Assembly (NCBI GenBank): GCA_013112575.1 | Contig: JABFGG010000003.1 | Location: forward strand, 83,096 to 147,095 | Length of the DNA: 64,000 nt | DNA from: Chloroflexota bacterium | GTDB lineage: Bacteria > Chloroflexota > Anaerolineae > Anaerolineales > UBA11579 | Reading direction: 5' to 3' | In this document: piece after piece, positions 6,473 to 22,204 of the stretch | Numbering within the stretch: the first letter of the stretch is position 1 | Layout: every line of letters starts with the position of its first letter | Made by a program: the position numbers and the translations under genes | Notes under the pieces: generated by a model | Seen by the model: only the letters and a program-made list of their open reading frames with translations | What the model was told of the DNA's origin: nothing | Databases searched by the model: none

Positions 6473-7465
6473 GTGAAATTTGAAGAAAGGATGTTTAAGT
6501 TTTTGACGCAATTGGCGGTAGTCGCAGCAATCCCTGACATTGGGAAAATCATTGAGCGCGCCAATCAGGAAATGCCACCTGCCTGGCCTCTGCCAAAACA
6601 TGTCTGCGCGGCGGTGGGAGGAGGTGAAAAGGAAGCTATTGAAGCTTCAATAGCCATCGCCTGTTGCCAGATAAGTATCATCCTGATCGATGATCTTTTG
6701 GATGAAGACCCGCGTGGTGAGCATCATCGGATTGGTGTGGGCAGTGCAGCCAATTACGCTTCAGCATTTCAGACAGCGGGTATAGAAGTAGTTCTAAATA
6801 GCAATATGTCTGAAAAAACAAAGCTGCTGGCTATTCACATAATTAACAGCATGATGCGTGATACCGCCGCGGGGCAGGAGATAGATATTCAAAATCCGGA
6901 TAACGAAGAAGCCTACTGGCAAATGGTGCGTGCCAAGAGTTCGCCCTATTTCGGAGCAGCCTTCGCTGTGGGGGCATTGTTTGGCGGGGCTTCCCCGGAA
7001 CTAGCTTACCAAATGAAAAAGCTAGGTGAATTGCATGGAGAGATCGTGCAGATCGGTGACGACCTGGAGGATACGATGGAGTCTCCGGCAGGCCCCGATT
7101 GGGGTAATGGGCGTTATACGTTACCTATTCTGTTCGCTTCGATCGTCGAACATCCAGAACGGCAGCTTTTCTTGGAGATAAGGAAAAGTGTTGAAACTGT
7201 TGCGGATTTGGAAGCCGCGCAAGACATCCTGATACGTTGTGGGGCAGTCGGTTATTGCCTGGACCAGATCCTGTGGCGCTATGAGCAGGCCAAACAAATG
7301 TGGTCGGAATTTGAATTGGACGACAGGTCCCCGGTTGAGGCAATCTTCCTTGAATCCGTCACTCCGGTGTGGAATTTGTTGGGCGGATTAGGTGAGGCCC
7401 TTCCTGAAGATTTCAGACCCAACTATGGTGATGTTACTCTTGATGCTCCGGTGACTGCGGGGTGA
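6473..7465 (+). CDS. Polyprenyl-synthetase-fold protein (candidate ComQ-like peptide prenyltransferase)
   Basis: GTG start 5 nt after GGAGGA. Two Asp-rich motifs, ILIDDLLDED and QIGDDLEDT, plus GQEIDI. About 330 aa, like trans-prenyl diphosphate synthases and ComQ. Confidence 0.8.
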   Translation: MKFEERMFKFLTQLAVVAAIPDIGKIIERANQEMPPAWPLPKHVCAAVGGGEKEAIEASIAIACCQISIILIDDLLDEDPRGEHHRIGVGSAANYASAFQTAGIEVVLNSNMSEKTKLLAIHIINSMMRDTAAGQEIDIQNPDNEEAYWQMVRAKSSPYFGAAFAVGALFGGASPELAYQMKKLGELHGEIVQIGDDLEDTMESPAGPDWGNGRYTLPILFASIVEHPERQLFLEIRKSVETVADLEAAQDILIRCGAVGYCLDQILWRYEQAKQMWSEFELDDRSPVEAIFLESVTPVWNLLGGLGEALPEDFRPNYGDVTLDAPVTAG

Positions 7466-8108
7466 TTAAGCCTTTTTTACGGGCTTCTTCGATTGCAGCC
7501 GGGAGATTGCGTACACCCAGTTTGGCATAGGTGGTCGAGAGCAAATTGCGAACGGTGGAGTGAGCGATATGCAACTCCTCTGCAACTTTGGACGTCGATA
7601 GGCTGGGATCGTTGGCAAAATAATTCAGCACTTCCAGTTGCCTGGGTGTAATAATCTTTTTATTTGGGCTATCAATCAATTCTCGGGCAGCTTCGGAGAC
7701 AAAAATTGATCCAGCATTCACCTGACGTATGACCTCATCAAGCTTGCGTGTGACTTCCATGTCATCCTTGAGAACGAAACCGGCTGTGCCTACATCCAGG
7801 GCGTGTTGGATCAAATAACTCTGTTTATGCATAGATATCACTAAAACCCTGGTCCCTGGATGTTTACGCACGATCTCTGGAAGCTTATCAACCATTGGGT
7901 AGGTGCTGTCATCTTCCGCTGAAACGGGCACGGTGATGTCAAGTAGCAACACATCTATACCACCTTGCGCCAGCATGGGCTCTAATTCTGCGCCATAAGT
8001 TGCTGTTGCCACAACCTCACAGTCTGGTGCCTCACTTAAACGAAATTTGTATCCATCAATGATACTGGCATGATCGTCTAAAATGGCGATACGAATAGTG
8101 TTAGGCAT
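7434..8108 (-). CDS. NarL/LuxR-family response regulator (REC + HTH)
   Basis: IAILDDH...DVLLLDITVP receiver motifs. C-terminal LuxR-type HTH (LSTSKVAEELHIAHSTVRNLLSTTYAKLGV). The 3' end overlaps the convergent gene by 32 nt. Confidence 0.92.
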   Translation of the reverse strand: MPNTIRIAILDDHASIIDGYKFRLSEAPDCEVVATATYGAELEPMLAQGGIDVLLLDITVPVSAEDDSTYPMVDKLPEIVRKHPGTRVLVISMHKQSYLIQHALDVGTAGFVLKDDMEVTRKLDEVIRQVNAGSIFVSEAARELIDSPNKKIITPRQLEVLNYFANDPSLSTSKVAEELHIAHSTVRNLLSTTYAKLGVRNLPAAIEEARKKGLITPQSPEHQE

Positions 8109-8254
8109 TTTCTATCCCTCAACTTTTCTTTAAAGATAGCAGAGATTTGTGTATACAACAAGTGACAATCAATAATCAGTACAATTGTCTATTCTCATTA
8201 TGTTCTTAATTCGTTAAACTGGTTATTAATAATCAATTAACCTTGCAGACTGAA

Positions 8255-8289
8255 GCCATCAGTGGAGGGGGATCTACTGGTGGCTTTTT
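8255..8289 (+). terminator. Plus-strand intrinsic terminator with no adjacent plus-strand gene
   Basis: GCCATCAGTGG / CTACTGGTGGC stem (11 bp including 2 G-U pairs), 8-nt loop, then TTTTT. Confidence 0.5.
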
Positions 8290-8314
8290 ACTTTAAATAA
8301 GTGTATAATGAATC

Positions 8315-8361
8315 TGCACCTTCTAGCCTGCCCCCCTCAGGTTGGGAGGTGCATTTTTTTT
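8315..8361 (+). terminator. Second plus-strand intrinsic terminator
   Basis: TGCACCT...AGGTGCA outer stem with inner CCTG/CAGG pairing, followed by T8. Confidence 0.6.
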
Positions 8362-8437
8362 ATAGCTCTTTTCATTTACCTGTAATACTAGTTGTTTAGA
8401 AGAGGTTTTATTGAAGCTTTCTTGTTGATTTTGCCTA

Positions 8438-8466
8438 TTGACAAGGTCCTGTTATTTTCGTACACT
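8438..8466 (+). promoter_or_regulatory. Sigma70-type promoter of the ilv-leu operon leader
   Basis: TTGACA (8438-8443), a 17-nt spacer, then TACACT (8461-8466). It lies 23 nt upstream of the leader-peptide ATG. Confidence 0.5.
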
Positions 8467-8488
8467 GTCTGACAACTGTGTGAGAAAA

Positions 8489-8599
8489 ATGTTTATATTA
8501 AATTTTAGCGTACTCTTCAGCCTTATTTTGGTCAGCCTTGTGCTCGTTCTTATTATTAAGAGCGCATTTATGCATTGGGCAGCCATACCGGCTGAGTGA
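8489..8599 (+). CDS. Ile/Leu/Val-rich leader peptide (36 aa) of the ilv-leu operon
   Basis: Hand translation gives MFILNFSVLFSLILVSLVLVLIIKSAFMHWAAIPAE. 16 of 36 residues are I/L/V, and 11 of 12 at codons 12-23. A terminator lies immediately downstream. The SD is weak. Confidence 0.6.
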   Translation: MFILNFSVLFSLILVSLVLVLIIKSAFMHWAAIPAE

Positions 8600-8657
8600 G
8601 AATAAGCAATAGACTGGTTATTCAAAAGCTGCCCAATCGGGCAGCTTTTTTTATTTT
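8574..8657 (+). promoter_or_regulatory. Attenuator: mutually exclusive antiterminator and terminator
   Basis: ATTGGGCAGC (8574-8583, inside the leader ORF) is perfectly complementary to GCTGCCCAAT (8628-8637), which is also the 5' arm of the terminator. Confidence 0.55.
8623..8657 (+). terminator. Intrinsic terminator 22 nt upstream of the ilvD ATG
   Basis: AGCTGCCC (8627-8634), aatc loop, GGGCAGCT (8639-8646), then TTTTTTTATTTT. Confidence 0.8.
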
Positions 8658-8678
8658 GGAGAATAGAGAGGAACAAGC

Positions 8679-10334
8679 ATGCGCTCAGACATCATCAAAA
8701 CCGGTTACGACCGAGCCCCCGCAAGAGCAATGCTCAAGGCAGTTGGCTTTACAGATGAAGACCTTAAGAAGCCCATTATCGGTGTAGCCAATACTTGGAT
8801 CGAAGTTGGCCCCTGTAACTTCCATTTGCGACGATTGGCAGCCAGAGTAAAGGAAGGCATCCGTGCAGCAGGTGGTACGCCAATGGAATTCAACACGGTC
8901 TCCATCTCAGACGGAATCACCATGGGTACAGAGGGCATGAAAGCCTCGCTGATCAGCCGTGAGGTCATCGCCGACTCGATCGAGCTGGTCGCTCAGGCTA
9001 ACCAGTTCGATGCTGTCGTGGCCCTATCCGGTTGTGACAAAACCATCCCGGGAACCATCATGGCGCTGGCGCGTCTTGATGTGCCCGGGATGATGTTATA
9101 TGGTGGATCTATTGCCGCAGGTAGTTTTGAAGGGCGTGATGTGACCGTGCAGGATGTCTTTGAAGCGGTGGGGGCCCACGCTGCTGGGCATATGAGTGCT
9201 GAACAACTGAAAGCTCTGGAAGACGCGGCTTGCCCTGGGCCGGGGGCATGCGGTGGGCAGTTCACGGCCAACACCATGGCGACGGCTGGTGAGTTCCTGG
9301 GCATCAGCCCAATGAGCACGGCCAGCGTACCGGCTACCGATGGTGACAAGGATGATGTTGCCTTTGGGATTGGTCAGACCCTCATGGATATGCTGGAGCG
9401 GGGCACTAAAGCACGCGACATCCTCACACGTGAAGCCATTGAAAATTCCATCATGTCCGTGGTGGCGACTGGCGGCTCGACCAATGCCGTATTGCATCTC
9501 CTGGCAATCGCCAACGAAGCTGGCGTGGAATTGGATATTGACGTCTTTGACCAGATCAGCAACAAGACCCCTTTATTGGCAGACCTTAAACCCGGTGGAC
9601 GTTTTGTGGCTATTGATTTGCATAAAGCCGGGGGCATCCAATTGGTAGCCCAACGGCTGCATGAAGCAGGCTTATTACATTCTGACGCTATCACCGTGAC
9701 GGGCAAGACAATTGGTGAAGAAGCTCAAAAAGCGGAAGAAACTGAAGGCCAGGAAGTGGTGCGGTCACTGGACAACCCCGTCAAAGAAACCGGCGGCCTG
9801 GTGATCCTCAAGGGCAATCTCGCCCCGGAAGGCTGTGTGGTCAAGATCGCAGGACATGATATGCGCCATCACAGCGGACCGGCACGGGTATATGATTGTG
9901 AAGAGGATTGTTTCGAGGCCGTGCAGAGCGGCGAGATCAAACCCGGGGACGTGGTCGTGATCCGTTACGAAGGTCCCATGGGCGGCCCGGGGATGCGCGA
10001 AATGCTGGGAGTTACGGCGGCCATCGTAGGGGCCAAACTGGATGACTCCGTTGCTTTGCTCACTGACGGCCGCTTCTCCGGGGCCACACACGGCCTGATG
10101 GCTGGGCACGTTGCACCAGAAGCAGCGCGTGGTGGCCCGATCGCCGCCGTACAGAATGGGGACACGATCACTTTTGATGTAGAAAAACGCCAATTGAATC
10201 TCGAAATAACAGAAGAAGAAATGAAATCCCGCATGCAAGACTGGCAGGCTCCCACACCTCGATACGCCCGCGGGGTGATGGCCAAGTATGCCCGTCTGGT
10301 GTCTTCGGCTGCCGAAGGTGCAGTATGCGTATAG
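8679..10334 (+). CDS. ilvD: Dihydroxy-acid dehydratase
   Basis: ILVD/EDD family motifs ([20 protein letters not shown]). 551 aa. Confidence 0.96.
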
Positions 10335-10366
10335 CCCACTCACTTAAAGATGAAAGGGAGTAGACA

Positions 10367-12070
10367 ATGAAGAAGAAAGGCGCACAAATATTTTGGGAAT
10401 GTATGGTCCGCGAAGGCGTTGAAGTGGTCTTTGGCTATCCTGGCGGTGCCATTATGCCCATCCACGATGCCATGTTGGAGTTCCCTGTGCACCACGTGCT
10501 CGTACGCCACGAGCAAGGGGCCGCACACATGGCAGATGGCTATGCGCGCACCTCAGGCAAGGTCGGTGTGGCCATGGCTACTTCCGGCCCGGGAGCAACC
10601 AACCTTGTGACAGGCATTGGAACGGCTATGATGGATTCATCGCCGATTGTGTGTGTCACCGGACAGGTGGCTTCCGAATTTATTGGCGGCGATGCATTCC
10701 AGGAAATGGATGTGACCGGTATTACTCTGCCGATCACGAAACACAACTTCCTGATCACGCGGGCAGACGAGATCGCCGATGTGGTGCGCGAGGCATTCTA
10801 CATTGCTAAGAGTGGCAGACCCGGACCCGTATTGATCGATATTTGCAAAGATGCACAAGTGACGGAAACGGACTTTGAGTATCCAGAAGAGCTTTCCCTG
10901 CCGGGCTACACTCCACCGGTCCAGGCTCCTACGGCAGACCTGCAACGTGCGGCAGAACTGATCGAAGCTGCAGAGCGTCCCGTGATCCTGGCTGGGCATG
11001 GCGTATTAATGTCTGATGCGATGGATGAGCTGCGCTTCTTCGCCGAAAAGACCCAAACACCGGTTGCTATGACCTTATTAGGTTTGGGTGGTTTTCCTGC
11101 TTCACACACGCTCAGCCTGGGCATGATGGGTATGCATGGCGAATTCTATTGCAATAACGCCATCCAGAACGCGGATCTGTTGCTGGCCTTTGGTATGCGC
11201 TTTGATGACCGCGTTACGGGCAAGCTGGATACCTATGCCCCCAATGCCAAAAAGGTGCACGTAGAGATCGATCCGAGCGAGGTGCACAAGAATGTTGCAG
11301 TAGATGTGCCCTTGGTAGGTGACCTCAAAACGGTTTTGGGTGAATTGAATACCATGATCGAGCCGGGTGACCGTGAGGAATGGATCGAAGAGATCGCCAA
11401 GTGGCGCATTGATACAGTCAAACATGACATCCTGAGCTGGCCCAACGATGGGCAGCTTTACTCAACCAGTGTGATCAACCATATCTGGGAAGAGACCAAA
11501 GGTGACCGTATCGTCACAACTGACGTGGGCCAACACCAGATGTGGACGGCACAGTATTACCAGTTCGAGAGACCGCACCGCCTGGTGACTTCTGGTGGGG
11601 CAGGCACCATGGGCTTTGGCTTACCCTCAGCCATTGGGGCCTGGTTTGCCCATCCTGACAAGGAGATCTGGACTGTGGTGGGCGACGGGGGCTTCCAGAT
11701 GACCCAGGCTGAATTGGCTACAGCCATGCAGGAAGGAGCCAACGTCAAGATCGCCGTTATAAACAACCACTTTTTGGGTATGGTGCGCCAGTGGCAGGAG
11801 TTCTTCTTTGAGAAGCGCTACGTGGCTACGCCATTGCACAACCCCGATTTTGTCAAACTGGCCCAGGCTTATGATGTTCCGGCCCGCCGAGTAACCGAGC
11901 CGGATGAAGTGCTACCTGCTATTGAGTTCGCACAAAAAACGCCCGGCCCAGTGTTGCTGGACTTCTGGGTCGAAAAAGAAGAGATCGTTTACCCGATGGT
12001 GCCCTCTGGAGCGGCCTTGCATGACATGTTGCGCCGCCCGGAAAAGCCCAAGACGCCGCTGGCTGAATGA
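10367..12070 (+). CDS. ilvB: Acetolactate synthase large subunit
   Basis: ThDP-enzyme architecture with VVGDGGFQM...NN ThDP motif. 567 aa. The ACT-domain small subunit follows. Confidence 0.95.
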   Translation: MKKKGAQIFWECMVREGVEVVFGYPGGAIMPIHDAMLEFPVHHVLVRHEQGAAHMADGYARTSGKVGVAMATSGPGATNLVTGIGTAMMDSSPIVCVTGQVASEFIGGDAFQEMDVTGITLPITKHNFLITRADEIADVVREAFYIAKSGRPGPVLIDICKDAQVTETDFEYPEELSLPGYTPPVQAPTADLQRAAELIEAAERPVILAGHGVLMSDAMDELRFFAEKTQTPVAMTLLGLGGFPASHTLSLGMMGMHGEFYCNNAIQNADLLLAFGMRFDDRVTGKLDTYAPNAKKVHVEIDPSEVHKNVAVDVPLVGDLKTVLGELNTMIEPGDREEWIEEIAKWRIDTVKHDILSWPNDGQLYSTSVINHIWEETKGDRIVTTDVGQHQMWTAQYYQFERPHRLVTSGGAGTMGFGLPSAIGAWFAHPDKEIWTVVGDGGFQMTQAELATAMQEGANVKIAVINNHFLGMVRQWQEFFFEKRYVATPLHNPDFVKLAQAYDVPARRVTEPDEVLPAIEFAQKTPGPVLLDFWVEKEEIVYPMVPSGAALHDMLRRPEKPKTPLAE

Positions 12071-12089
12071 GCGCAGGAGAGAAACACTG

Positions 12090-12641
12090 ATGAATCAAAA
12101 TTTGTTAATTGCAAAAGTTGAGAACAAGCCCGGTGTGTTGAACCGTGTGGCATCATTGTTCCGCCGCCGTAACTTCAATATCGAGTCGCTTAACGTAGGT
12201 CACTCTGAAACCCCTGATGTTTCGCGCATGACGATCGCGATGGATGCTTCGCAGGTCGATGTGAAACTTGTGGAGGCTAACCTTTATAAGCTGGTCAATG
12301 TCATCGATGTGCAGGATGTCAGCAACCATCCCAATATTACGCGCGACCTGGCCTTGATTAAAGTAACGGCCAATGCTGAACAACGTGCCGAGATCGCCAA
12401 CCTGGTGCAGCTATTCCGCGCCAAAGTGGTGGATGTGGCGGCAGGGTCTGTGATCGTGGAAGTGACCGGAACGCTGGATAAAGTTGAAGCACTGATCAAC
12501 CTGTTACGCCCAATGGGCGTTAAAGAGATCGTACGCACCGGCCAGATAGCGATGTTGCGCGGTGATGGCATTGGTACGCGCCATACCCCGGGCGCTAATG
12601 GCAACAAACAATCGAATAACAAAGAAGAAGAGAGAAAATAA
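12090..12641 (+). CDS. ilvN: Acetolactate synthase small (regulatory) subunit
   Basis: The ATG at 12090 gives [34 protein letters not shown] (ACT domain). The tracked ORF start at 11904 is an in-frame extension inside ilvB. Confidence 0.92.
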
Positions 12642-12643
12642 TT

Positions 12644-13657
12644 ATGGCAAACATTTATTACGACAAGGATGCAAATCCTGAACTTATTAAGGCTAAAAAA
12701 GTAGCTGTTGTAGGCTACGGCTCGCAGGGGCATGCCCACGCGCTCAATTTGCAAGACAGCGGAGTGGAGGTGCGCGTGGGTTTGCACCCTGAGAGCAAGT
12801 CGTGGGCCAAGGCAGAAGGGGATGGGGTGCGGGTGTCCAGTGTGGCAGAAGCGGCAGAATGGGGCGATGTGATCATGATCCTGGCACCCGATACTGTACA
12901 GCCGGAGATCTATACTACGCAAATTGAACCCTATCTCACGGCAGGCAAAACCCTGATGTTCGGGCATGGCTTCAACATTCGTTTTGAAACCATCACCCCG
13001 CCGGAAAACGTGGACGTGACCATGGTGGCGCCTAAGGCTCCCGGGCATCGCGTGCGCGAAGTATATAAAGAAGGTGCAGGGACTCCGGCCTTGATAGCTG
13101 TCCACCAGGATGCCAGTGGTGAAGCTAAAGAACAGACGATCTCCTACGCACATGGCATTGGCTCGACGCGGGCCGGGGCCATTGAAACCACCTTTGCTGA
13201 AGAAACTGAGACAGATCTTTTTGGCGAACAGGCTGTGCTGTGCGGTGGTGTTTCCGCTCTTGTACAAGCGGGCTTTGAGACCCTGGTCAAATCCGGTTAC
13301 CAGCCAGAGATCGCCTATTTTGAGTGCATGCATGAACTTAAATTGATCGTTGACCTTATGTATCAGGGCGGTTTGAACTACATGCGCTACTCGGTGTCCG
13401 ATACAGCGGAACATGGCGACTACACCGGTGGCGAGCGGCTTATCACCGAAGAAGTCAAGGGCGAAATGTACAAGATGCTCTCGGAGATCCAGGATGGCAC
13501 GTATGCCAAGAAATGGATCGATGAGAATCAGAATGGCCGCCCGTGGTTCAACGAACGGCGAGCCCAGGAACAAGAGCATGTCATTGAAAAGGTGGGCGCA
13601 GAGCTGCGCGGCATGATGCCATTTATTGATGACGTGAATATTAAGGCTGGAGATTGA
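12644..13657 (+). CDS. ilvC: Ketol-acid reductoisomerase
   Basis: [19 protein letters not shown]-binding motif. 337 aa, class I KARI size. Confidence 0.96.
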
Positions 13658-13658
13658 C

Positions 13659-13711
13659 GTAAACAGCGGTAAGTGCTTCTGATTATTAAAAGAAAATACA
13701 CCGCTGTTTAC
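13659..13711 (+). other. Long-loop hairpin 1 in the ilvC-leuA spacer
   Basis: GTAAACAGCGGT (13659-13670) and ACCGCTGTTTAC (13700-13711) form a perfect 12-bp stem around a 29-nt AT-rich loop, followed by TTTAA. Confidence 0.6.
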
Positions 13712-13716
13712 TTTAA

Positions 13717-13768
13717 GTAATTGGCCGATATAAACCATTTGAGTTTAGTACTACTTTCGGCCAATTAC
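13717..13768 (+). other. Long-loop hairpin 2 in the ilvC-leuA spacer
   Basis: GTAATTGGCCGA (13717-13728) and TCGGCCAATTAC (13757-13768) form a perfect 12-bp stem around a 28-nt loop. It ends 3 nt before the leuA SD GGAG. Confidence 0.6.
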
Positions 13769-13782
13769 ATTGGAGCTAAACA

Positions 13783-15441
13783 ATGATTGACAAGAATTAC
13801 GTCCGTTTTTTTGATACGACCCTGCGGGATGGTGAGCAATCGCCTGGGGCGACCCTGACCTCTGCTGAAAAGCTTGAGATCGCGCGCTCCCTTGCCCGCC
13901 TGGGCGTGGACGTGATCGAGGCTGGTTTTCCAGCCGCTTCGAAAGATGACCTCGAAGGTGTACGCCAGATTGCCATTGAAGTCGGCAATCCGTCCAAAGG
14001 TGAGGAAGACCAGCCTGTACCTATTATTTGTGGTCTGGCACGTGCCAATGAAAGCGACATTGACGCTGCCTGGGATGCGGTGCAACACGCCGCCCATCCG
14101 CGTATCCATACTTTCTTGGCGACTTCTCCCATTCATATGGAACACAAGCTGCGCATGGACCCTGAAGAAGTGGTTGAACGCGTAAAAGAAATGGTGACTT
14201 ATGCCAAGGCATATTGTGATGATGTGGAGTTCTCGCCCGAGGATGCTGGGCGCAGCGACCCCGAGTTCCTCTACCTGGTATTGGGCGAAGCCATCAAAGC
14301 CGGGGCGACAACGCTTAATATCCCCGACACGGTCGGTTATACGACCCCGGAGGAATTCGGTGGCCTTATCGCAGGGATCATGGAACATACCCCCGGCGTG
14401 GAAGATGTGATCGTCTCCGTGCACTGCCACGATGACCTTGGACTGGCCACAGCCAACACGTTGGCCGGTATTCAGGCCGGGGCGCGCCAGGCCGAAGTGA
14501 CCATGAATGGTATCGGCGAACGTGCCGGTAACACTTCCCTGGAAGAGATCGTGATGGCCTTGCGCACGCGCCAGCCTGTCTTTGAATTAGAGACGGGTAT
14601 CGATACAACACTGATTACGCGGGTCAGCCGCCAGGTTTCTAACTACACGGGTATCCCTGTGCAGCCTAATAAAGCCATTGTGGGTGCCAATGCCTTTGCG
14701 CATGAGGCTGGCATCCACCAGGATGGCATGTTGAAGCACAATGAGACCTACGAGATCATGCGGCCCGAGATGGTGGGCCTCAACCAATCACGATTGGTCT
14801 TAGGCAAACACTCGGGTCGTCATGCTTTTAAAGTACGGCTGGCAGAGTTGGGACACGAGCTAGATCAGGATGAATTGAACCTGGCCTTTGTGCGCTTCAA
14901 GGAGCTGGCCGACAAAAAGAAAGAGATCACGGATGCTGACCTGGAAGCCCTGGTGGCAGACGAGATCTACCAGCCGACAGAGATTTATAAGCTGGACGGC
15001 TTGCAGGTTGCCTGCGGCACAATGGGCCTGGCAACAGCCACCGTACGTTTGGTAGGGCCGGAAGAGGATACGCATGAATTTGCAGCCATTGGTAGTGGTC
15101 CAGTGGATGCGACATATAAGGCCATTGATGGCATTGTAGAGACGGAGAATAACCTGCTGGAATACAGTGTGAACGCCGTAACCGAAGGCGTGGATGCTAT
15201 GGGGCAGGTATCTGTACGCCTCGAAGCTGAAACGGGTGAAATCGCCGGACGTACCTCGCCACAAAGTGGGGCACGCACGGCGCGTACCTTTGGCGGACAC
15301 GGCGCGGATACGGACATCATTGTGGCCAGTGCCCGTGCTTATCTCTCTGCATTGAACAAACTGCTGGAAGCCAGCGGTAAGTATGGCGAGTTCAGCCCCA
15401 CAGCTGAAGTCTCAGCCCCGGCCCCAGAAAAGGTAGCCTGA
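13783..15441 (+). CDS. leuA: 2-isopropylmalate synthase (long form with C-terminal regulatory domain)
   Basis: [13 protein letters not shown] and [13 protein letters not shown] motifs. 552 aa. Confidence 0.93.
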
Positions 15442-15458
15442 TTTATGGAGCAACGTAG

Positions 15459-16868
15459 ATGACCCAAGCCAGAACGCTCTTTGAAAAAGTGTGGGACCAG
15501 CACGTGATCGTGCAGGAGAAAGCTTCGCCTGCCGTGTTGTACATAGACTTGCATCTGATCCACGAAGTGACCTCACCGCAGGCCTTCACCGGACTGAGAC
15601 AACGTGGCCTGAAGGTGCGCCGCCCGGATAGAACCGTGGCGACCATGGACCACTCCACACCCACCACGCCACTAAGTGTGCCCATGCTGGATACACAAGC
15701 AGCCTCCCAGCTGAGCATGCTGGAAGAGAATTGCCAGGAGTTTGGCATCGAATTGCACAAACTTGGCTCTAAAAAGCAGGGCATTGTGCACGTGATCGGC
15801 CCGGAGATGGGCCTGGTGCAGCCTGGCATGACCATTGTGTGTGGGGACAGCCACACGGCTACACATGGTGCCTTTGGCACACTGGCTTTCGGTATTGGCA
15901 CCTCAGAAGTCGAACACGTGCTGGCAACCCAAAGCTTGTTGCAGCACAAACCCAAAACCTATGAAGTGCGTATAGATGGACAGTTGGCGCGGGGTGTCTC
16001 TGCCAAAGACATCATCCTGGCCCTACTTTCCAAGATCGGCGTACATGGTGGTACCGGGCACGTCTTTGAATACACTGGTTCAGCCATCCGCGGCCTTTCG
16101 ATGGAAGAACGCATGACGGTTTGTAATATGTCGATTGAAGGTGGGGCGCGGGCAGGCATGGTTGCGCCGGATGAAACCACCTATGAATACCTGGCCGGGC
16201 GTGAATTCGCCCCGCAAGGAGATGAATGGGATCAGGCGGTGGCGCGCTGGAAGGATTTGCCCACTGACGAAGGGGCGACCTATGACAACTCTGTCACGCT
16301 GGATACCTCTGATCTGGCGCCGATGATCACCTATGGCACCAATCCGGGTCTGGGCATGCAGGTCACCGAGCGCATACCTGATCCGGATAAACTGCCGAAT
16401 GTGAATGAACGCCAAGCCCTGGAAAAGGCGCTGAACTATATGGCCCTGAAACCCGGCCAGCCTTTGCTCGACCATCCGGTGGATGTGGTCTTTATCGGGA
16501 GCTGCACCAACTCGCGAATTTCTGATCTGCGTCTGGCTGCCGGATTGATCAAAGATCGTAAGGTGGCTGAAGGGGTACGTATGCTGGTTGTGCCCGGTTC
16601 GCAGTCTGTTAAACGCCAAGCCGAGGCGGAAGGCCTTGATGAGGTCTTCAAGAATGCCGGGGCCGAGTGGCGTGAAGCCGGTTGTTCCATGTGCATCGCC
16701 ATGAACGGCGACCAACTGGAACCCGGCCAGTATGCGGTGAGCACCAGCAACCGCAATTTTGAGGGTCGTCAGGGCAAGGGTGGACGCACCTTTTTGGCCT
16801 CGCCACTGACGGCTGCTGCTACAGCAATAAATGGGCGCATTACGGATGCGCGCAGCATGCTCCAATAG
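15459..16868 (+). CDS. leuC: 3-isopropylmalate dehydratase large subunit
   Basis: Aconitase-family motifs ([22 protein letters not shown]). Confidence 0.95.
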
Positions 16869-16877
16869 GAAAATACC

Positions 16878-17474
16878 ATGCAGAAATTTGACACATTACG
16901 TTCCAAGTTGATCCCTTTGCCACATAACAACATTGATACCGACCAGATCATCCCGGCGCGCTATTTGAAAGTCACCGATAAGTCCGGGCTGGCAGAGGGA
17001 CTGTTCACGGATTGGCGCTATGAAGATGATGGCAGCCCTAAAGAGGATTTTGTGCTGAACGATGATCGCTATCAAGAAGCAAACATTTTGCTGGCGGGCG
17101 ACAACTTCGGCTGTGGCTCCTCACGAGAACATGCCCCCTGGGCTTTGGTGGGCTGGGGAGTGCAGGCTGTGGTCAGCACCTCCTTTGCCGACATCTTTAA
17201 AAGTAATGCACTCAAGAATGGACTGCTGCCCGTGGTAGTGGATGAAGAAACACACCAATCGCTGTTCGACCTGACGGAAGAAGCTCCCGATGCGGAAGTG
17301 CACATTGATCTGGGTGCCCAGGAAATGACCCTCCCGGATGGCTCAACCGTGGAGTTCCCGGTGGATGCTTTTGCCAAAAGCTGCTTGTTGGCAGGTGTAG
17401 ACCAGTTGGGCTATATTCAGTCCTTCGACGAGCATATCACCAGCTACGAGCAGGAAAGAGCGATCTTCGGATGA
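16878..17474 (+). CDS. leuD: 3-isopropylmalate dehydratase small subunit
   Basis: GDNFGCGSSREHAPWAL motif. 198 aa. Confidence 0.95.
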   Translation: MQKFDTLRSKLIPLPHNNIDTDQIIPARYLKVTDKSGLAEGLFTDWRYEDDGSPKEDFVLNDDRYQEANILLAGDNFGCGSSREHAPWALVGWGVQAVVSTSFADIFKSNALKNGLLPVVVDEETHQSLFDLTEEAPDAEVHIDLGAQEMTLPDGSTVEFPVDAFAKSCLLAGVDQLGYIQSFDEHITSYEQERAIFG

Positions 17475-19048
17475 ACGCCTTAGAGCCAGGGCAGGTTTTG
17501 ATATACGATACAACCTTGCGCGATGGCACCCAGCGCGAGGGCATTTCCCTGTCTTGTAATGACAAGCTGCGCATCGCCCAACGCCTGGACGATCTGGGTG
17601 TGGCATACATCGAGGGTGGCTGGCCGGGTTCGAATCCTAAGGATGTAGAGTTCTTTGAACGCCTGGATGAGTTGGACTTGCAAAATGCCAAGATCGCGGC
17701 CTTTGGTTCGACCTGCCGGGTAGGTTCTGCTCCTGAAGAAGATGAAAACCTCCAGGCTTTGTTGGATGCCGGTACGGACGTGTGTACCATTGTGGGTAAA
17801 AGCTGGACCTTGCACGTTACCGACGTATTGAAAACGGATAAAGAGGAGAACCTGCGCATCATTGAGGAAAGCGTGGCGTACTTAAAAGCCCAGGGCAAAG
17901 AAGTCATTTATGATGCCGAGCATTTCTTCGACGGCTATTTTGATGACGCGGATTATGCAATGAGCACTTTGCAAGCTGCGGCAAAAGGTGGGGCCGACTC
18001 AGTGGTGCTGTGTGACACGAATGGTGGCACACTGCCGCGCGATATGGCGCGTACCGTCAATGAGGTCAAGGCGGCCTTATCCGATGAGGTGCTACTGGGC
18101 ATCCACACGCATAATGACGGTGAATGTGCGGTGGCTAATACACTGGTCGCCGTTGAAGAAGGCGCTGTACATGTACAGGGCACGATCAACGGATATGGCG
18201 AACGCTGCGGCAATGCCAACCTTTGTAGCATCATCCCTGATCTTGAATTGAAGATGGGGCGCAAAACCTTGCCAGAAGGCAACCTGCCTGAGTTGTACGA
18301 CGTAGCCCATTTTGTGGCTGAGGTTGCTAACCTGGCTCCGGACGAGCATTTGGCTTACGTAGGGCAAAGCGCCTTTGCCCACAAGGGCGGCATCCACGTA
18401 GCGGCCATGTTGCGCAACATCCATAGCTACCAGCACATCGATCCCGAATTGGTTGGCAACCAGATGCGTACAGTGGTGTCGGAGCTTTCTGGGCGCGGCA
18501 ACTTGCTTTCCAAAGCTGAAGATTTGGATATTGATATTGAGGATAAGGCGCTGGTTAGCGAAGTCTTGCAGGAGATCAAGAAATTAGAGGCGCGCGGTTT
18601 TTCCTTTGAAGCTGCAGAAGCTTCTGTGGCTATGATGATGCACCGCCAAAAGCCCGGTTACAAGCCCCTGTTCGAACTTACGGATTATTCAGCCTCGGTC
18701 GAGAATCGACAGGGGCGCGGTGTGTTTGCCGAAGCTATGGTTAAGGTCAATGTGGAAGGTGAAGTTTTCCATACGGTGGCTGAAGGTAATGGGCCGGTCA
18801 ATGCCCTTGATGCAGCCATGCGCAAAGCCCTATCCCCTGTCTATCCACGCATTAATGATTTCCAATTGGCGGACTACAAGGTGCGCATTCTTGATGGCAA
18901 AAATGGTACTGCCGCCACCACCCGAGTTCTGATCGATACGCAGAATGGACACCAGCGCTGGAGCACGGTGGGGGCCAGCGCCAATATCATTGAAGCCAGT
19001 TGGCTGGCCCTGGCCGACAGCATAGAATATGGATTGAGCCTGACATGA
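17471..19048 (+). CDS. cimA: (R)-citramalate synthase (LeuA-family, CimA-type)
   Basis: [17 protein letters not shown] and [13 protein letters not shown] motifs. About 525 aa with a C-terminal LeuA-dimer-type domain. It is a second LeuA-family gene in the same operon. ATGA overlaps occur at both ends. Confidence 0.8.
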
Positions 19049-20136
19049 AAGCGAAGATCGTTACTTTACCCGGGGATGGCATCGGCCCTGAAGTGGTCAC
19101 GGCTGCGATTGAAGTGCTGGCAGCCGTGTGCAACAAATTTGGCTATGAATATGAGTTGGATGAACAGCTTATTGGTGGGAGTGCTTTAGATGTCGCTGGT
19201 TCCTCTTTACCTGAAGCTACTCTGAAAGCCTGTCGGCAGTCAGACGCGGTGCTTTTAGGGGCCGTAGGTGGCCCCAAATGGGATGATCCTAACGCCAGTG
19301 ACCGCCCCGAAAAAGGGTTGCTGGGTTTACGTAAAGAGCTGGGTTTATACGCCAACGTGCGCCCCGTGCGCCCGCATGCTGACCTGAGTAAAGCCTCGCC
19401 TTTGCGCGCTGATTTATTGGAAGGTGTGGACTTCACAGTGTTGCGAGAATTGACCGGCGGCATTTATTTTGGGGAACCGCGTGAACGCCGCCAGGAAAAT
19501 GGCCTCACACTGGCGCTTGATACCATGGTGTACAGTGACGCGGAAATCAGCCGTGCCGCGCATATGGCGTTTCGTCTGGCGCAGGGCCGTCGCGGCAAGC
19601 TGACTTCTGTAGACAAAGCTAACGTGCTGGAGAGCTCACGCTTATGGCGGCAAACGGTCACGCAGGTCGCCGAGGATTACCCGGATGTGGAATTGGAGCA
19701 CCTGCTGGTGGATGCTGCCGCCATGCACCTGTTGACGCGACCGGCTTCCTTTGACGTGATCGTGACCAGCAATTTGTTTGGCGACATCCTCACGGACGAA
19801 GCGTCGGTTCTGACGGGTTCGATGGGCAACCTGCCCTCGGCTTCACTGGGCGAGGATTTGAATCAATTCGGCCAGCCACGAGGATTGTATGAACCCATTC
19901 ACGGCTCGGCTCCGGATATCGCTGGTAAGGGCGTTGCCAACCCGGTGGGCACGATCAATTCCTTGGCCCTGATGTTGCGTTATTCGCTGGGTTGGGAAGA
20001 TGCGGCCGCGGCGGTGGAACAGGCTGTGGATGTGGCCTTATCGGATGGCTGCCGCACGGTCGATCTGGCTGCTGATGGCGAGAAGAGTTTGAATACCACT
20101 GAAATGTACGCCGAAGTTGTGGCGCGTATCAACTGA
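19045..20136 (+). CDS. leuB: 3-isopropylmalate dehydrogenase
   Basis: The ATG at 19045 gives [29 protein letters not shown] motif. The tracked start at 19000 is an extension inside cimA. Confidence 0.94.
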
Positions 20137-20160
20137 AATTGGAGAAGATGGAGAAATTGT

Positions 20161-21099
20161 ATGAAATCTGATTACATCTGGATGGATGGGGAATTGGTGC
20201 CATATAAAGATGCCACCTTGCACGTGCTCACGCCGGCACTGCACTATGGCCTGGGTGTATTTGAAGGTATCCGCTGTTACGATACCAGCCGAGGGCCAGG
20301 TGTGTTCCGTCTGCAGGAGCACCTGGAGCGTTTCGTGAATTCGATCAGTGTATTGGGTGTGGAACACTTTCCTTATACTGTATCCGAACTGTCGGATGCA
20401 GTGCATATGACGATCCGCGCCAACCGTTTTTCAGAATGTTACATTCGCCCACTGATGTATATGGCCGACGGCCCACTGGGCCTCAACCTGGACGTTTCGC
20501 GTCCGGCGGTGTCCATTGCTACCTGGGAGTGGGGCACTTATCTGGGGAAGGCCGCCCTGGAGACGGGCGTGCATATGATGGTTTCTTCCTTCACCCGCCC
20601 GCAACCCAATTCGGTGATGACCAAGGCCAAGATCACGGGTAATTACGTCAATTCCGCCCTGGCGAAAACACTGGCTGTACGCTCGGGGTTTGATGAAGCC
20701 ATCATGCTCGACCCGGAAGGCTTCGTGGCAGAATGCAGTGGGGAGAACCTCTTCCTGGTGCGTGCTGGTGCGCTGTATTCGCCCCCCAAAGCGCTTATGC
20801 TAGAGGGGATCACACGCGATTCGGTCATTACCCTGGCAGGAGACCTGGGCTATCAGGTAGTGGAGGAGCCTGTTACACGTGACCAGCTTTATATCGCTGA
20901 CGAGATATTTGTGTGTGGTACGGCTGCTGAGGTCGTAGCTGTGCGTGAGATCGATTTTCGAAAAATCGGTAGTGGCAAGATGGGCCCCATCACCAGCCAG
21001 ATCCAAGAGGCCTTCTTCAAGACAGTGCGCGGTGAAGGTGAGCGCTCCAACGACTGGCTTGAGATCGGCTCGAAGACTGAATATTCGGCAGGGATTTAG
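20161..21099 (+). CDS. ilvE: Branched-chain amino-acid aminotransferase
   Basis: Class IV aminotransferase pattern (FEGIRCY, ECSGENLF, GITRDSV). 312 aa. Confidence 0.93.
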   Translation: MKSDYIWMDGELVPYKDATLHVLTPALHYGLGVFEGIRCYDTSRGPGVFRLQEHLERFVNSISVLGVEHFPYTVSELSDAVHMTIRANRFSECYIRPLMYMADGPLGLNLDVSRPAVSIATWEWGTYLGKAALETGVHMMVSSFTRPQPNSVMTKAKITGNYVNSALAKTLAVRSGFDEAIMLDPEGFVAECSGENLFLVRAGALYSPPKALMLEGITRDSVITLAGDLGYQVVEEPVTRDQLYIADEIFVCGTAAEVVAVREIDFRKIGSGKMGPITSQIQEAFFKTVRGEGERSNDWLEIGSKTEYSAGI

Positions 21100-21134
21100 T
21101 CCAAAAGAAGCGAATAGAATAGTACGAATATAGT

Positions 21135-21164
21135 AGAGGCTGCTCTCGAGTAGTCTCTTTTTTT
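21135..21164 (+). terminator. Terminator of the ilv-leu operon
   Basis: AGAGGCTGCTC / GAGTAGTCTCT stem (with G-U pairs) followed by a T7 run. Confidence 0.6.
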
Positions 21165-21166
21165 GC

Positions 21167-22204
21167 TTACAGGGATTTTAAGACTGCTCCAAGCACCCTC
21201 ACTGCCTTGTTGTATTCTTCTACTGATATGTGTTCATTTGGAGTGTGATCCAAGGATGAATCGCCGGGACCATATGCCAGAATAGGGCAGCCCCAGACTG
21301 GGCCTACAATGTTCATGTCAGCTGTACCTGTTTTGCGCACGAAACGCGGTTGCCCGTCCTGTTGCCGAATAGCTCTCAAGAATGAGCGTACCAGGGGATT
21401 GTTTTTATCGCCCAGATGCGCTGGGATGGCATAACCAAGTTCTTCAAATTGGGAAGCCTCGAGTAGCTTGCCGAGTTCTTTGTAAAGCATTTGGGGGGTC
21501 ATACTGAGAGGTAAACGAAAGCTGATATCCAGCGAGGCCGTTTCTTCAAAACCATCACCATTGGAAGCCATACTGGATAAGGTTGGGCTGACCTGTTCAA
21601 AAACTCGTTCATGATCGCGGTTATATTCCTCTGCCCACTTTTGGATTCTTATCCAATCCTCAACCACCGCTTCTGCTGCACTTCGGCTTTCGCCGGCTGA
21701 ATGTGCCGTGAATTGTTGGCGAGTAATTCTGGCCCAGGCGCTGCCTTTATAACCAAGAGTGACGCGATCCCAAGCGCTGGGTTCGCCAATAATCGCGGCG
21801 GCTGGCTGGAATTGATCCACAATCTGACGGGCGCCGATGGAATCGTTTTCTTCGCCCACGGCCCCAATGACGACAAATTGGAAACCGGCAAATTCGCCTA
21901 TTTCAGCGACCGCATCCACAAAAGCGGCCAAAGGCCCTTTGGCGTCCACGCTGCCGCGGCCGTAGAGTAAATCATCTTCCTGCCGAACCGGGATCTCGCC
22001 GGGAACGGTATCAATGTGGCCTAAAAGTACAACCTGCCTGTTTCCATTCCCCATAATGCCAATAGCGTTGCCAACTTCATCAACGTAGGCCTGAGAATAG
22101 CCTAAAGAACCCATGTGTTCCACAAGGAAATTGACAGCCCCGGCTTCTTCCCCAGAGGGGCTGTAACGCTTGAGAAGCCCTAACAATGTTTTGGGTACTG
22201 TCAT
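21167..22204 (-). CDS. lysK: M20-family [LysW]-lysine/ornithine hydrolase (LysK/ArgE-like)
   Basis: N-terminus YSPSGEE...[10 protein letters not shown] and [10 protein letters not shown] are M20 deacylase motifs. Last gene of the LysW cluster. Confidence 0.8.

Follow-up and report, generated by a model that had tools for sequence, protein, structure and literature searches.

What decides whether RNA polymerase enters the genes for branched-chain amino acid (BCAA) synthesis in a Chloroflexota bacterium of the order Anaerolineales? The question is raised by a stretch of 64,000 nucleotides (nt), hereafter the window (GenBank assembly GCA_013112575.1, contig JABFGG010000003.1, positions 83,096 to 147,095 of the forward strand), in which a short open reading frame (ORF) rich in codons for isoleucine, leucine and valine (ILV codons) and an intrinsic terminator stand before the ten-gene ilv-leu-cimA operon. 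A first-pass annotation, made from the letters of this DNA, had read the arrangement as a ribosome-stalling attenuator. Conservation and covariation in relatives, predicted folds and the absence of a T-box support this design, and it appears highly probable that the leader is a ribosome-mediated (leader-peptide) BCAA transcription attenuator of the classical trp/ilv type that controls the entire operon. From these patterns we infer that the ORF is translated, that ribosomes stall within it, that transcription and translation are coupled and that the outcome responds to BCAA supply.

Promoter, leader ORF and alternative RNA structures

The leader is preceded by a sigma-70-type promoter (8438-8466; like all features below, on the forward strand unless stated otherwise), in which TTGACA (8438-8443) is separated by a 17-nt spacer from TACACT (8461-8466). 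This promoter had been proposed at the outset, and with 10 of 12 consensus matches it is indeed the best promoter-like site in 7400-9400 and also in 8400-21400; its position suggests that transcription starts at about 8473. The leader ORF that follows has 36 codons (8489-8599, with the ATG at 8489 and the TGA at 8597-8599), and 16 of the 36 residues of its product, MFILNFSVLFSLILVSLVLVLIIKSAFMHWAAIPAE, are I, L or V (4 Ile, 8 Leu, 4 Val). Its regulatory ILV run spans codons 8-23 (8510-8557), and within the core of this run, codons 12-23 (8522-8557, LILVSLVLVLII), 11 of 12 codons specify I, L or V, exactly as first described. An 11-of-12 segment of this kind occurs once in the six-frame translation of the entire 64 kb and recurs in 8 of 5000 shuffles of the intergenic region (8109-8678, 570 nt) and in 1 of 5000 shuffles of 8467-8678; the run exceeds chance expectation and is unlikely to have arisen by chance. 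As such, the 5' leader of an amino acid biosynthetic operon carries a short ORF that is rich in codons for the end products of the pathway.

The RNA beyond the run offers a set of alternative pairings. The switch strand is region 2 (8574-8583, ATTGGGCAGC), which can pair with either region 1 or region 3. The perfect complementarity that had been claimed between region 2 and region 3 (8628-8637, GCTGCCCAAT) holds over 10 base pairs (bp), and this antiterminator duplex, at -18.4 kcal/mol, is equalled by 1 of 300 dinucleotide shuffles of the upstream leader. The nucleotides 8628-8637 serve double, as the 3' strand of the antiterminator and as the 5' arm of an intrinsic terminator (regions 3 and 4, 8624-8652) of the form AAAAGCTGCCC-AATC-GGGCAGCTTTT followed by a T run. 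Its stem (8624-8649) consists of 11 bp, 6 of them G-C, closes on the loop AATC and begins 24 nt past the leader stop codon, and its T run stops at 8652, followed by A and TTTT. Antiterminator and terminator are mutually exclusive, a relation for which conservation provides more support than covariation, and the terminator follows the leader ORF and precedes the first structural gene. A strong terminator about 25 nt before the ilvD ATG had been expected; the T run in fact ends 26 nt before that ATG (8679), which leaves no room for a separate promoter, and all transcription of the operon thus has to pass the terminator.

Region 1 (8531-8541), which lies inside the ILV codons, pairs with region 2 in unconstrained and truncated folds and forms the 5' strand of a putative anti-antiterminator; the predicted 1:2 pairing thereby overlaps the regulatory codons. 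Nested within the 1:2 stem, predicted folds contain hairpin A (8539-8566), which pairs CGTTCTTA (8545-8552) with TAAGAGCG (8557-8564) in its minimum-energy register and TGTGCTC (8539-8545) with GAGCGCA (8560-8566) in an alternative register. Hairpin A may cause a pause that keeps polymerase and ribosome in step. Spacer hairpin B (GAATAAGC...GGTTATTC, 8600-8623), between the stop codon and the terminator, is kept only in one related locus (L161).

Constrained folding, in which the ribosome was modelled as a 30-nt footprint held unpaired, reproduces the 1:2, 2:3 and 3:4 alternatives. Specifically, when RNA made to 8638 is folded without a ribosome, region 2 is predicted to be held by 8531-8541 and region 3 is free for the terminator. 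When the ribosomal A site is placed anywhere in 8522-8549 (codons 12-21), the constrained fold contains the full 10-bp helix between region 2 and 8628-8637.

Conservation and covariation in relatives

Are these elements kept where the sequence around them diverges? The comparison draws on 172 ilvD loci, collected from the matches listed for species-representative genomes and metagenomes, most of them in distant phyla, and by exact-protein look-up of close relatives. The ilvD protein of the window has no exact counterpart on record; its closest homologues are an ENA metagenome protein with 96% identity and many proteins with 77-80%, and their named sources are Anaerolineae bacterium SG8_19, Candidatus Promineifilaceae and Chloroflexota. 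The close clade comprises 16 loci with 13 distinct sequences, all from Anaerolineae-like Chloroflexota and with ilvD 77-96% identical; the frequency of the design was compared among those 168 ilvD loci whose upstream sequence was long enough, namely the 16 clade loci and 152 others.

All 13 distinct clade sequences carry, 5' of ilvD, an ATG-initiated ORF of 31-41 codons with 15-21 I, L or V residues (for example MLLPNTSLLLVLISLLSILVLILEIENQRLLVGS, MLLASNYSLILVLVILLSILVLILEIKYRQLPMDSWRPKQR, MIFSNLLPVVVLIISILVLLLIEEPAILLGQLVE and MISANILIIVLLIGLFLILIKELNMHGQPRM), such that both the ORF and its regulatory codons are retained throughout. Each leader ORF is followed by a terminator of the form GGGGCTGTCC-loop-GGACAGCCCC with a T run (-18 to -28 kcal/mol). 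An ILV-run ORF followed by a terminator is thus present in 16 of 16 clade loci, compared with 8 of the 152 other ilvD loci, and a clade member that keeps the terminator after losing the ORF or the run, which would have spoken against the first-pass annotation, does not occur among the 16. The leader promoter is identical in L161, and a T[AT]GACA-17-TAnnnT site lies 20-42 nt 5' of the leader ATG in 9 of the 13 sequences.

The clade leaders were aligned with MAFFT (alignment A1), and pairing was scored on fixed alignment columns. Hairpin A of the window and L161 sits 2 nt out of register in this alignment, which causes some columns to be scored as unpaired, and per-sequence folding was added because of this shift. 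The most conserved nucleotides in the alignment are YGGRCRGC in region 2, GCTGYC in region 3 and GRCAGC in region 4. All 13 sequences have the core of region 2, YGGRCRGC, towards the 3' end of the ORF, and 6 of its 8 positions are invariant. In the window and L161 the core falls in frame 0 (W-A-A), seven relatives read it in frame 1 (e.g. V-G-S) and four in frame 2 (e.g. H-G-Q-P), and the peptide tails vary accordingly; being read in all three frames, it is conserved as RNA and not by selection on the peptide. In every one of the 13 sequences, 17-20 nt lie between the last ILV codon and the start of region 2, a spacing that sets region 2 just outside the footprint of a ribosome stalled on the last regulatory codons.

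In each of the 13 sequences, no other part of the upstream leader forms a better duplex with the terminator 5' arm than region 2 does (-14 to -23 kcal/mol), and in 11 of them the 2:3 duplex beats at least 95% of dinucleotide shuffles (p <= 0.043). On the fixed columns, 93% of the cells of the 2:3 helix are paired, compared with 31-43% when the partner column is slid. The alignment of ilvD upstream regions, which the first-pass annotation had put forward as a check, further revealed compensatory changes in the terminator and in hairpin A. In the terminator, 98.6% of cells are paired and 6 of 11 pairs have changed on both sides; in hairpin A, 88.8% of cells are paired and 3 pairs have changed on both sides. 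Taken jointly, the two structures have 94.4% of cells paired and 9 two-sided changes, and their covariation score is reached by 0 of 500 shuffles. The 5' arm of hairpin A is formed by the last ILV codons and its 3' arm by the codons past the run (arm pairs CTGGTTCTC/GAGAACCAG, CTGTTCCTC/GAGGAACAG, GGTACTT/AAGTACC and, as in the window, CGTTCTTA/TAAGAGCG), and the hairpin thereby accounts for the residues that follow the hydrophobic run. When the RNA is folded up to region 2, it pairs back onto the ILV-codon segment (region 1) and encloses hairpin A in 11 of the 13 sequences.

The relatives also differ in ways of their own. In L166 (1811-2000) and L169 (1792-2000), about 190-216 nt separate the leader T run from ilvD, and this gap contains another strong hairpin followed by a T run (CACAGCCGCTTGTC...GACAAGCGGCTGTTTTT), which may be a tandem control element; the same two loci have the weakest 2:3 pairing. 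Two copies of the palindrome GCTAGC, which could base-pair with one another, are found in the spacer from stop codon to terminator in L162, L164, L167, L170, L172 and L081, one directly past region 2 (CAGCTAGCG) and one about 25-30 nt downstream; in the window and L161, hairpin B takes the place of this pair. Public gene calls at the leader are inconsistent: L162-L165 carry a 52-amino-acid ORF on the opposite strand (L162 1682-1840), in L170 (1795-1917) the leader peptide itself is called as a hypothetical protein of 40 amino acids, and the other loci have no call. A minus-strand ORF is likewise found in the window (8676-8452, 74 codons). It was rejected as a gene, since NTN codons are expected to leave such an ORF on the antisense strand, neither its length nor its ends are conserved and it crosses the terminator. 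A repeated or mobile element was also considered and discarded, as the region 2/3/4 pattern has a single copy in the window and, among the 172 loci, is confined to the 16 of the clade.

A model of attenuation and the points against it

The available data are compatible with a model in which transcription would begin at about 8473 and a ribosome would translate the 36-codon leader ORF while closely trailing RNA polymerase. When charged tRNA-Ile, tRNA-Leu or tRNA-Val is scarce, the ribosome would stall in the ILV run (8510-8557), where it would cover region 1 (8531-8541) and/or open hairpin A and thereby leave region 2 free. Once region 3 (8628-8637) has been made, free region 2 (8574-8583) would pair with it to form the 10-bp antiterminator, which would consume the 5' arm of the terminator and allow polymerase to continue into ilvD. 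When BCAA are plentiful, the ribosome would instead pass over region 2 to the stop codon at 8597. There it would sit in the 43-nt loop between regions 2 and 3 and sterically exclude the helix or, alternatively, depart and let region 1 re-pair with region 2; in both cases, regions 3 and 4 would form the terminator (8624-8652), and transcription would stop 26 nt before ilvD. If the leader is not translated at all, the 1:2 pairing would likewise leave the terminator free.

Several points weigh against this model and have to be set beside the evidence above. The support for an attenuator is wholly computational, drawn from sequence, conservation, covariation and folds, and the mechanism would presuppose close coupling of transcription and translation in Chloroflexota. 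The Shine-Dalgarno match of the leader ORF is weak (GUGAG, 4 nt 5' of the ATG). The columns of the 2:3 helix are mostly invariant, such that their covariation score is reached by 150 of 500 shuffles, and the 2:3 duplexes of L166 and L169 are weaker than the others (p 0.16-0.24). Additionally, the terminator wins every full-length equilibrium fold; antitermination must therefore be kinetic, as it is in classical systems. The weakest link is termination in the replete state. The stop codon lies 13 nt past region 2 in the window (0-19 nt in relatives), a terminating ribosome with a simple footprint masks only 2 nt of region 2, and the constrained fold with the ribosome at the stop codon still permits 8 bp of the 2:3 helix. 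Replete termination would thus need steric exclusion of the helix or the re-forming of 1:2.

Alternative explanations

Could the leader be something other than a ribosome-sensing switch? The plainest alternative, a chance ORF in T-rich intergenic DNA beside an ordinary terminator or insulator hairpin, would do without any switch. T-rich sequence does favour codons for I, L, V and F, and open frames are cheap here, given that the antisense strand is also open over 43-118 codons. The ILV run nevertheless has a p of about 0.002 or lower in shuffles, the design distinguishes the clade loci from nearly all others, the terminator and hairpin A clearly covary, and an essential biosynthetic operon would not be expressed behind a constitutive terminator 26 nt before its first gene; the comparative data have effectively refuted this explanation, which we regard as hardly credible. 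It is more readily conceivable, if still very unlikely, that the ORF is a real gene for a small hydrophobic protein with a single transmembrane helix and its own terminator, and that its link to ilvD is incidental or secondary. The peptide looks like a transmembrane helix with charged residues behind it (…LVLII-K/E…), has weak sub-threshold Pfam and NCBIfam hits to FixS/CcoS, phospholamban and PsbH and shares an N-terminal M-x-L-P-N pattern with several relatives, and the gene caller did annotate the ORF of L170. The C-terminal third, however, is not kept as peptide, its conserved nucleotides being read in three frames, and the residues past the run are dictated by a covarying RNA hairpin. The hydrophobic stretch, moreover, is nearly all I, L and V, broken mainly by Ser and occasionally by Phe, Gly or Ala, a composition nearer to that of Escherichia coli ilvL than to an ordinary transmembrane segment; the short distance between terminator and ilvD has no room for an ilvD promoter, and the element is found only before ilvD, in the 16 clade loci. 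The ORF may also have a dual role, as attenuator and as the source of a functional peptide.

A different possibility is that attenuation is real but is sensed by a trans-acting RNA-binding protein, a tRNA or a small ligand that acts on YGGRCRGC or hairpin A, with the ORF as a by-product. Regions 2 and 3 and hairpin A are the most conserved nucleotides, the leader has the weak Shine-Dalgarno match noted above and T-boxes are known in Chloroflexi (PMC3766115), all of which would suit such a sensor. Against this, no T-box or other known RNA family is found here even at E <= 10, the ATG, the ORF and the ILV run are retained in 13 of 13 sequences despite large sequence divergence, the fixed 17-20 nt between run and region 2 fits only a ribosome-sized sensor, and the 11-of-12 segment is unlikely by chance; the idea is improbable as a whole. 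About equally doubtful is an addition suggested by analogy, namely that the terminated leader RNA (about 180 nt, ending in a strong terminator hairpin) and/or the transmembrane-like 36-amino-acid peptide act in trans, as do the trp attenuator products rnTrpL and peTrpL in Sinorhizobium (PMC7298713). If true, such an activity would account for the M-x-L-P-N start seen repeatedly and for the charged residue that follows the hydrophobic run. In a milder version, the attenuator family of the clade may have evolved independently, from which tight coupling of transcription and translation in uncultured Anaerolineae would follow.

Relation to known attenuators

How does the proposed leader-peptide attenuator relate to described families? 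In the window and in 20 related loci alike, every Rfam model stays below its gathering score. The best sub-threshold matches are Phe_leader (RF01859; 35.9 versus 55 bits) and Leu_leader (RF00512; 23.4 versus 50 bits), which like the window have a long stem followed by a G+C-rich terminator; the similarity resides mostly in the terminator, and their regulatory codons differ from those of the window. The leader peptide matches no Pfam or NCBIfam leader-peptide family at E <= 10. A T-box is found neither at E <= 10 in 7900-9000 nor at gathering score in the window or related loci, and a T-box, riboswitch or other Rfam family was accordingly rejected as the identity of the element.

The ilvL peptide of E. 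coli has 32 amino acids, 15 of them I, L or V, with Ser interruptions, and mediates multivalent control. The leaders of enterobacterial ilvGMEDA (ilvL) and ilvBN (ivbL) likewise intersperse Ile, Leu and Val codons, in peptides of about 32 residues compared with 36 in the window, and share with it the 1:2, 2:3 and 3:4 alternatives, an intrinsic terminator just 5' of the first structural gene and, presumably, multivalent control by all three BCAA. There is no detectable homology between these leaders and that of the window, which differs in that region 2 lies inside the ORF, 13 nt before the stop codon, in that a covarying hairpin is nested in 1:2, in the ten-gene ilvDBNC-leuACD-cimA-leuB-ilvE unit that it precedes and in its phylum, Chloroflexota.

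The first-pass annotation had contrasted the design with the T-box of Bacillus. Both would perform the same task, conditional termination before an ilv-leu operon in response to tRNA charging, but in B. subtilis uncharged tRNA-Leu binds the leader RNA directly, whereas the sensor in the window would be the ribosome. While this contrast stands in that no T-box is present here, it is less sharp than proposed, since a leader-peptide, ilvD-first operon also exists in Firmicutes, in Staphylococcus aureus (PMC5794164). There, an attenuator with experimental support controls ilvDBNC-leuABCD-ilvA (PMC5794164); that of the window is known from its letters and predicted folds. As in the window, an ORF and a terminator stand directly before an ilvD-first ilv-leu operon, and peptide and terminator are conserved across relatives in both (PMC5794164). 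The S. aureus peptide, however, has 26 amino acids with only 3 Ile and 5 Leu and is Leu-responsive, its terminator lies 52 nt past the leader stop codon compared with 24 nt to the stem in the window, its antiterminator, as proposed, would occupy the poly-U tail and not the terminator 5' arm, and CodY provides a second layer of control (PMC5794164). The ilvBNC leader of Corynebacterium glutamicum similarly combines an ILV-codon peptide with a three-hairpin attenuator in a non-proteobacterial phylum, but has a much shorter peptide, an ilvBNC-only operon and no sequence similarity to the window (PMC11857589, PMC1262725).

Among the other ilvD loci, metagenome-assembled genomes labelled Acidobacteriota contain two further designs of an ILV leader ORF and terminator before ilvD, both unrelated in sequence to that of the window (L003, L084, L087, L091 and L097, about 55-250 nt upstream of ilvD; L062, L071 and L051). 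The peptides of one end in ...FGVLILLVLFILTGVAVTPGASG, those of the other have MKKILNPLVVVIIGCGPPA, and neither design matches Rfam. These unrelated designs suggest that BCAA leader peptides arose repeatedly.

Implications

The mechanism itself is neither new nor surprising; what is new is a well-conserved case of a textbook class in a phylum for which no earlier description was found. Specifically, full-text literature searches, which did not extend to the broad 2010 survey of Lopatovskaya et al., yielded no account of leader-peptide attenuation in Chloroflexi or Anaerolineae, and the RNA-based amino acid control reported for Chloroflexota until now is the T-box (PMC3766115). The findings would thereby extend leader-peptide attenuation to a mostly uncultured clade of Anaerolineae-like Chloroflexota, in which a single switch would govern the pathways to all three BCAA together with the citramalate route to isoleucine. 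In turn, an attenuator of this kind would imply coupling of transcription and translation close enough for ribosome-dependent control and would provide indirect evidence of such coupling in Anaerolineae. The leader also defines a conserved family of RNA and peptide outside Rfam, Pfam and NCBIfam that could improve annotation, given that gene callers overlook the leader ORF in relatives or place a spurious one on the other strand.

The operon and its surroundings

The operon (8679-21099) comprises ilvD, ilvB, ilvN, ilvC, leuA, leuC, leuD, cimA, leuB and ilvE. NCBIfam hits above curated cut-offs establish all ten genes, including cimA and ilvE, in agreement with the first description. As read from the sequence, ilvD has the ribosome-binding site GAGAGGA (8666-8672), 6 nt 5' of its ATG. 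The operon ends at a second terminator (21135-21165) with a 10-bp stem (21135-21158) and T7. Among terminator-like sites on the forward strand in 8400-21400, the leader (11 pairs) and the operon end (10) have the two longest stems, and only these two have an uninterrupted T run.

The upstream neighbour is a divergently transcribed gene for a NarL/LuxR-type response regulator on the minus strand (7434-8108). It converges with a polyprenyl synthase gene on the forward strand (6473-7465), the 3' ends of the two overlapping by 32 nt (7434-7465), and the same convergent overlap is found in L161. The divergent intergenic region between the response regulator and the operon contains two strong terminator-like hairpins with T runs on the forward strand (8252-8287 and 8315-8353, at -23 and -26 kcal/mol), about 790 nt from the end of the nearest upstream forward-strand gene (6473-7465). 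Together with the intervening AGTGTATAATGA, these hairpins have 83-92% identity to L161, compared with 47-64% for the flanking spacers, and they have no Rfam match. They could represent a small RNA, insulators against antisense read-through from the polyprenyl synthase gene, or another element.

Within the operon, the 125-nt gap between ilvC and leuA (13658-13782) holds two long inverted repeats, one pairing AAACAGCGGT (13661-13670) with ACCGCTGTTT (13700-13709) and the other TAATTGGCCGA (13718-13728) with TCGGCCAATTA (13758-13768), the latter ending just before the leuA ribosome-binding site. These repeats could act in processing or stability, or could be a site of internal control.

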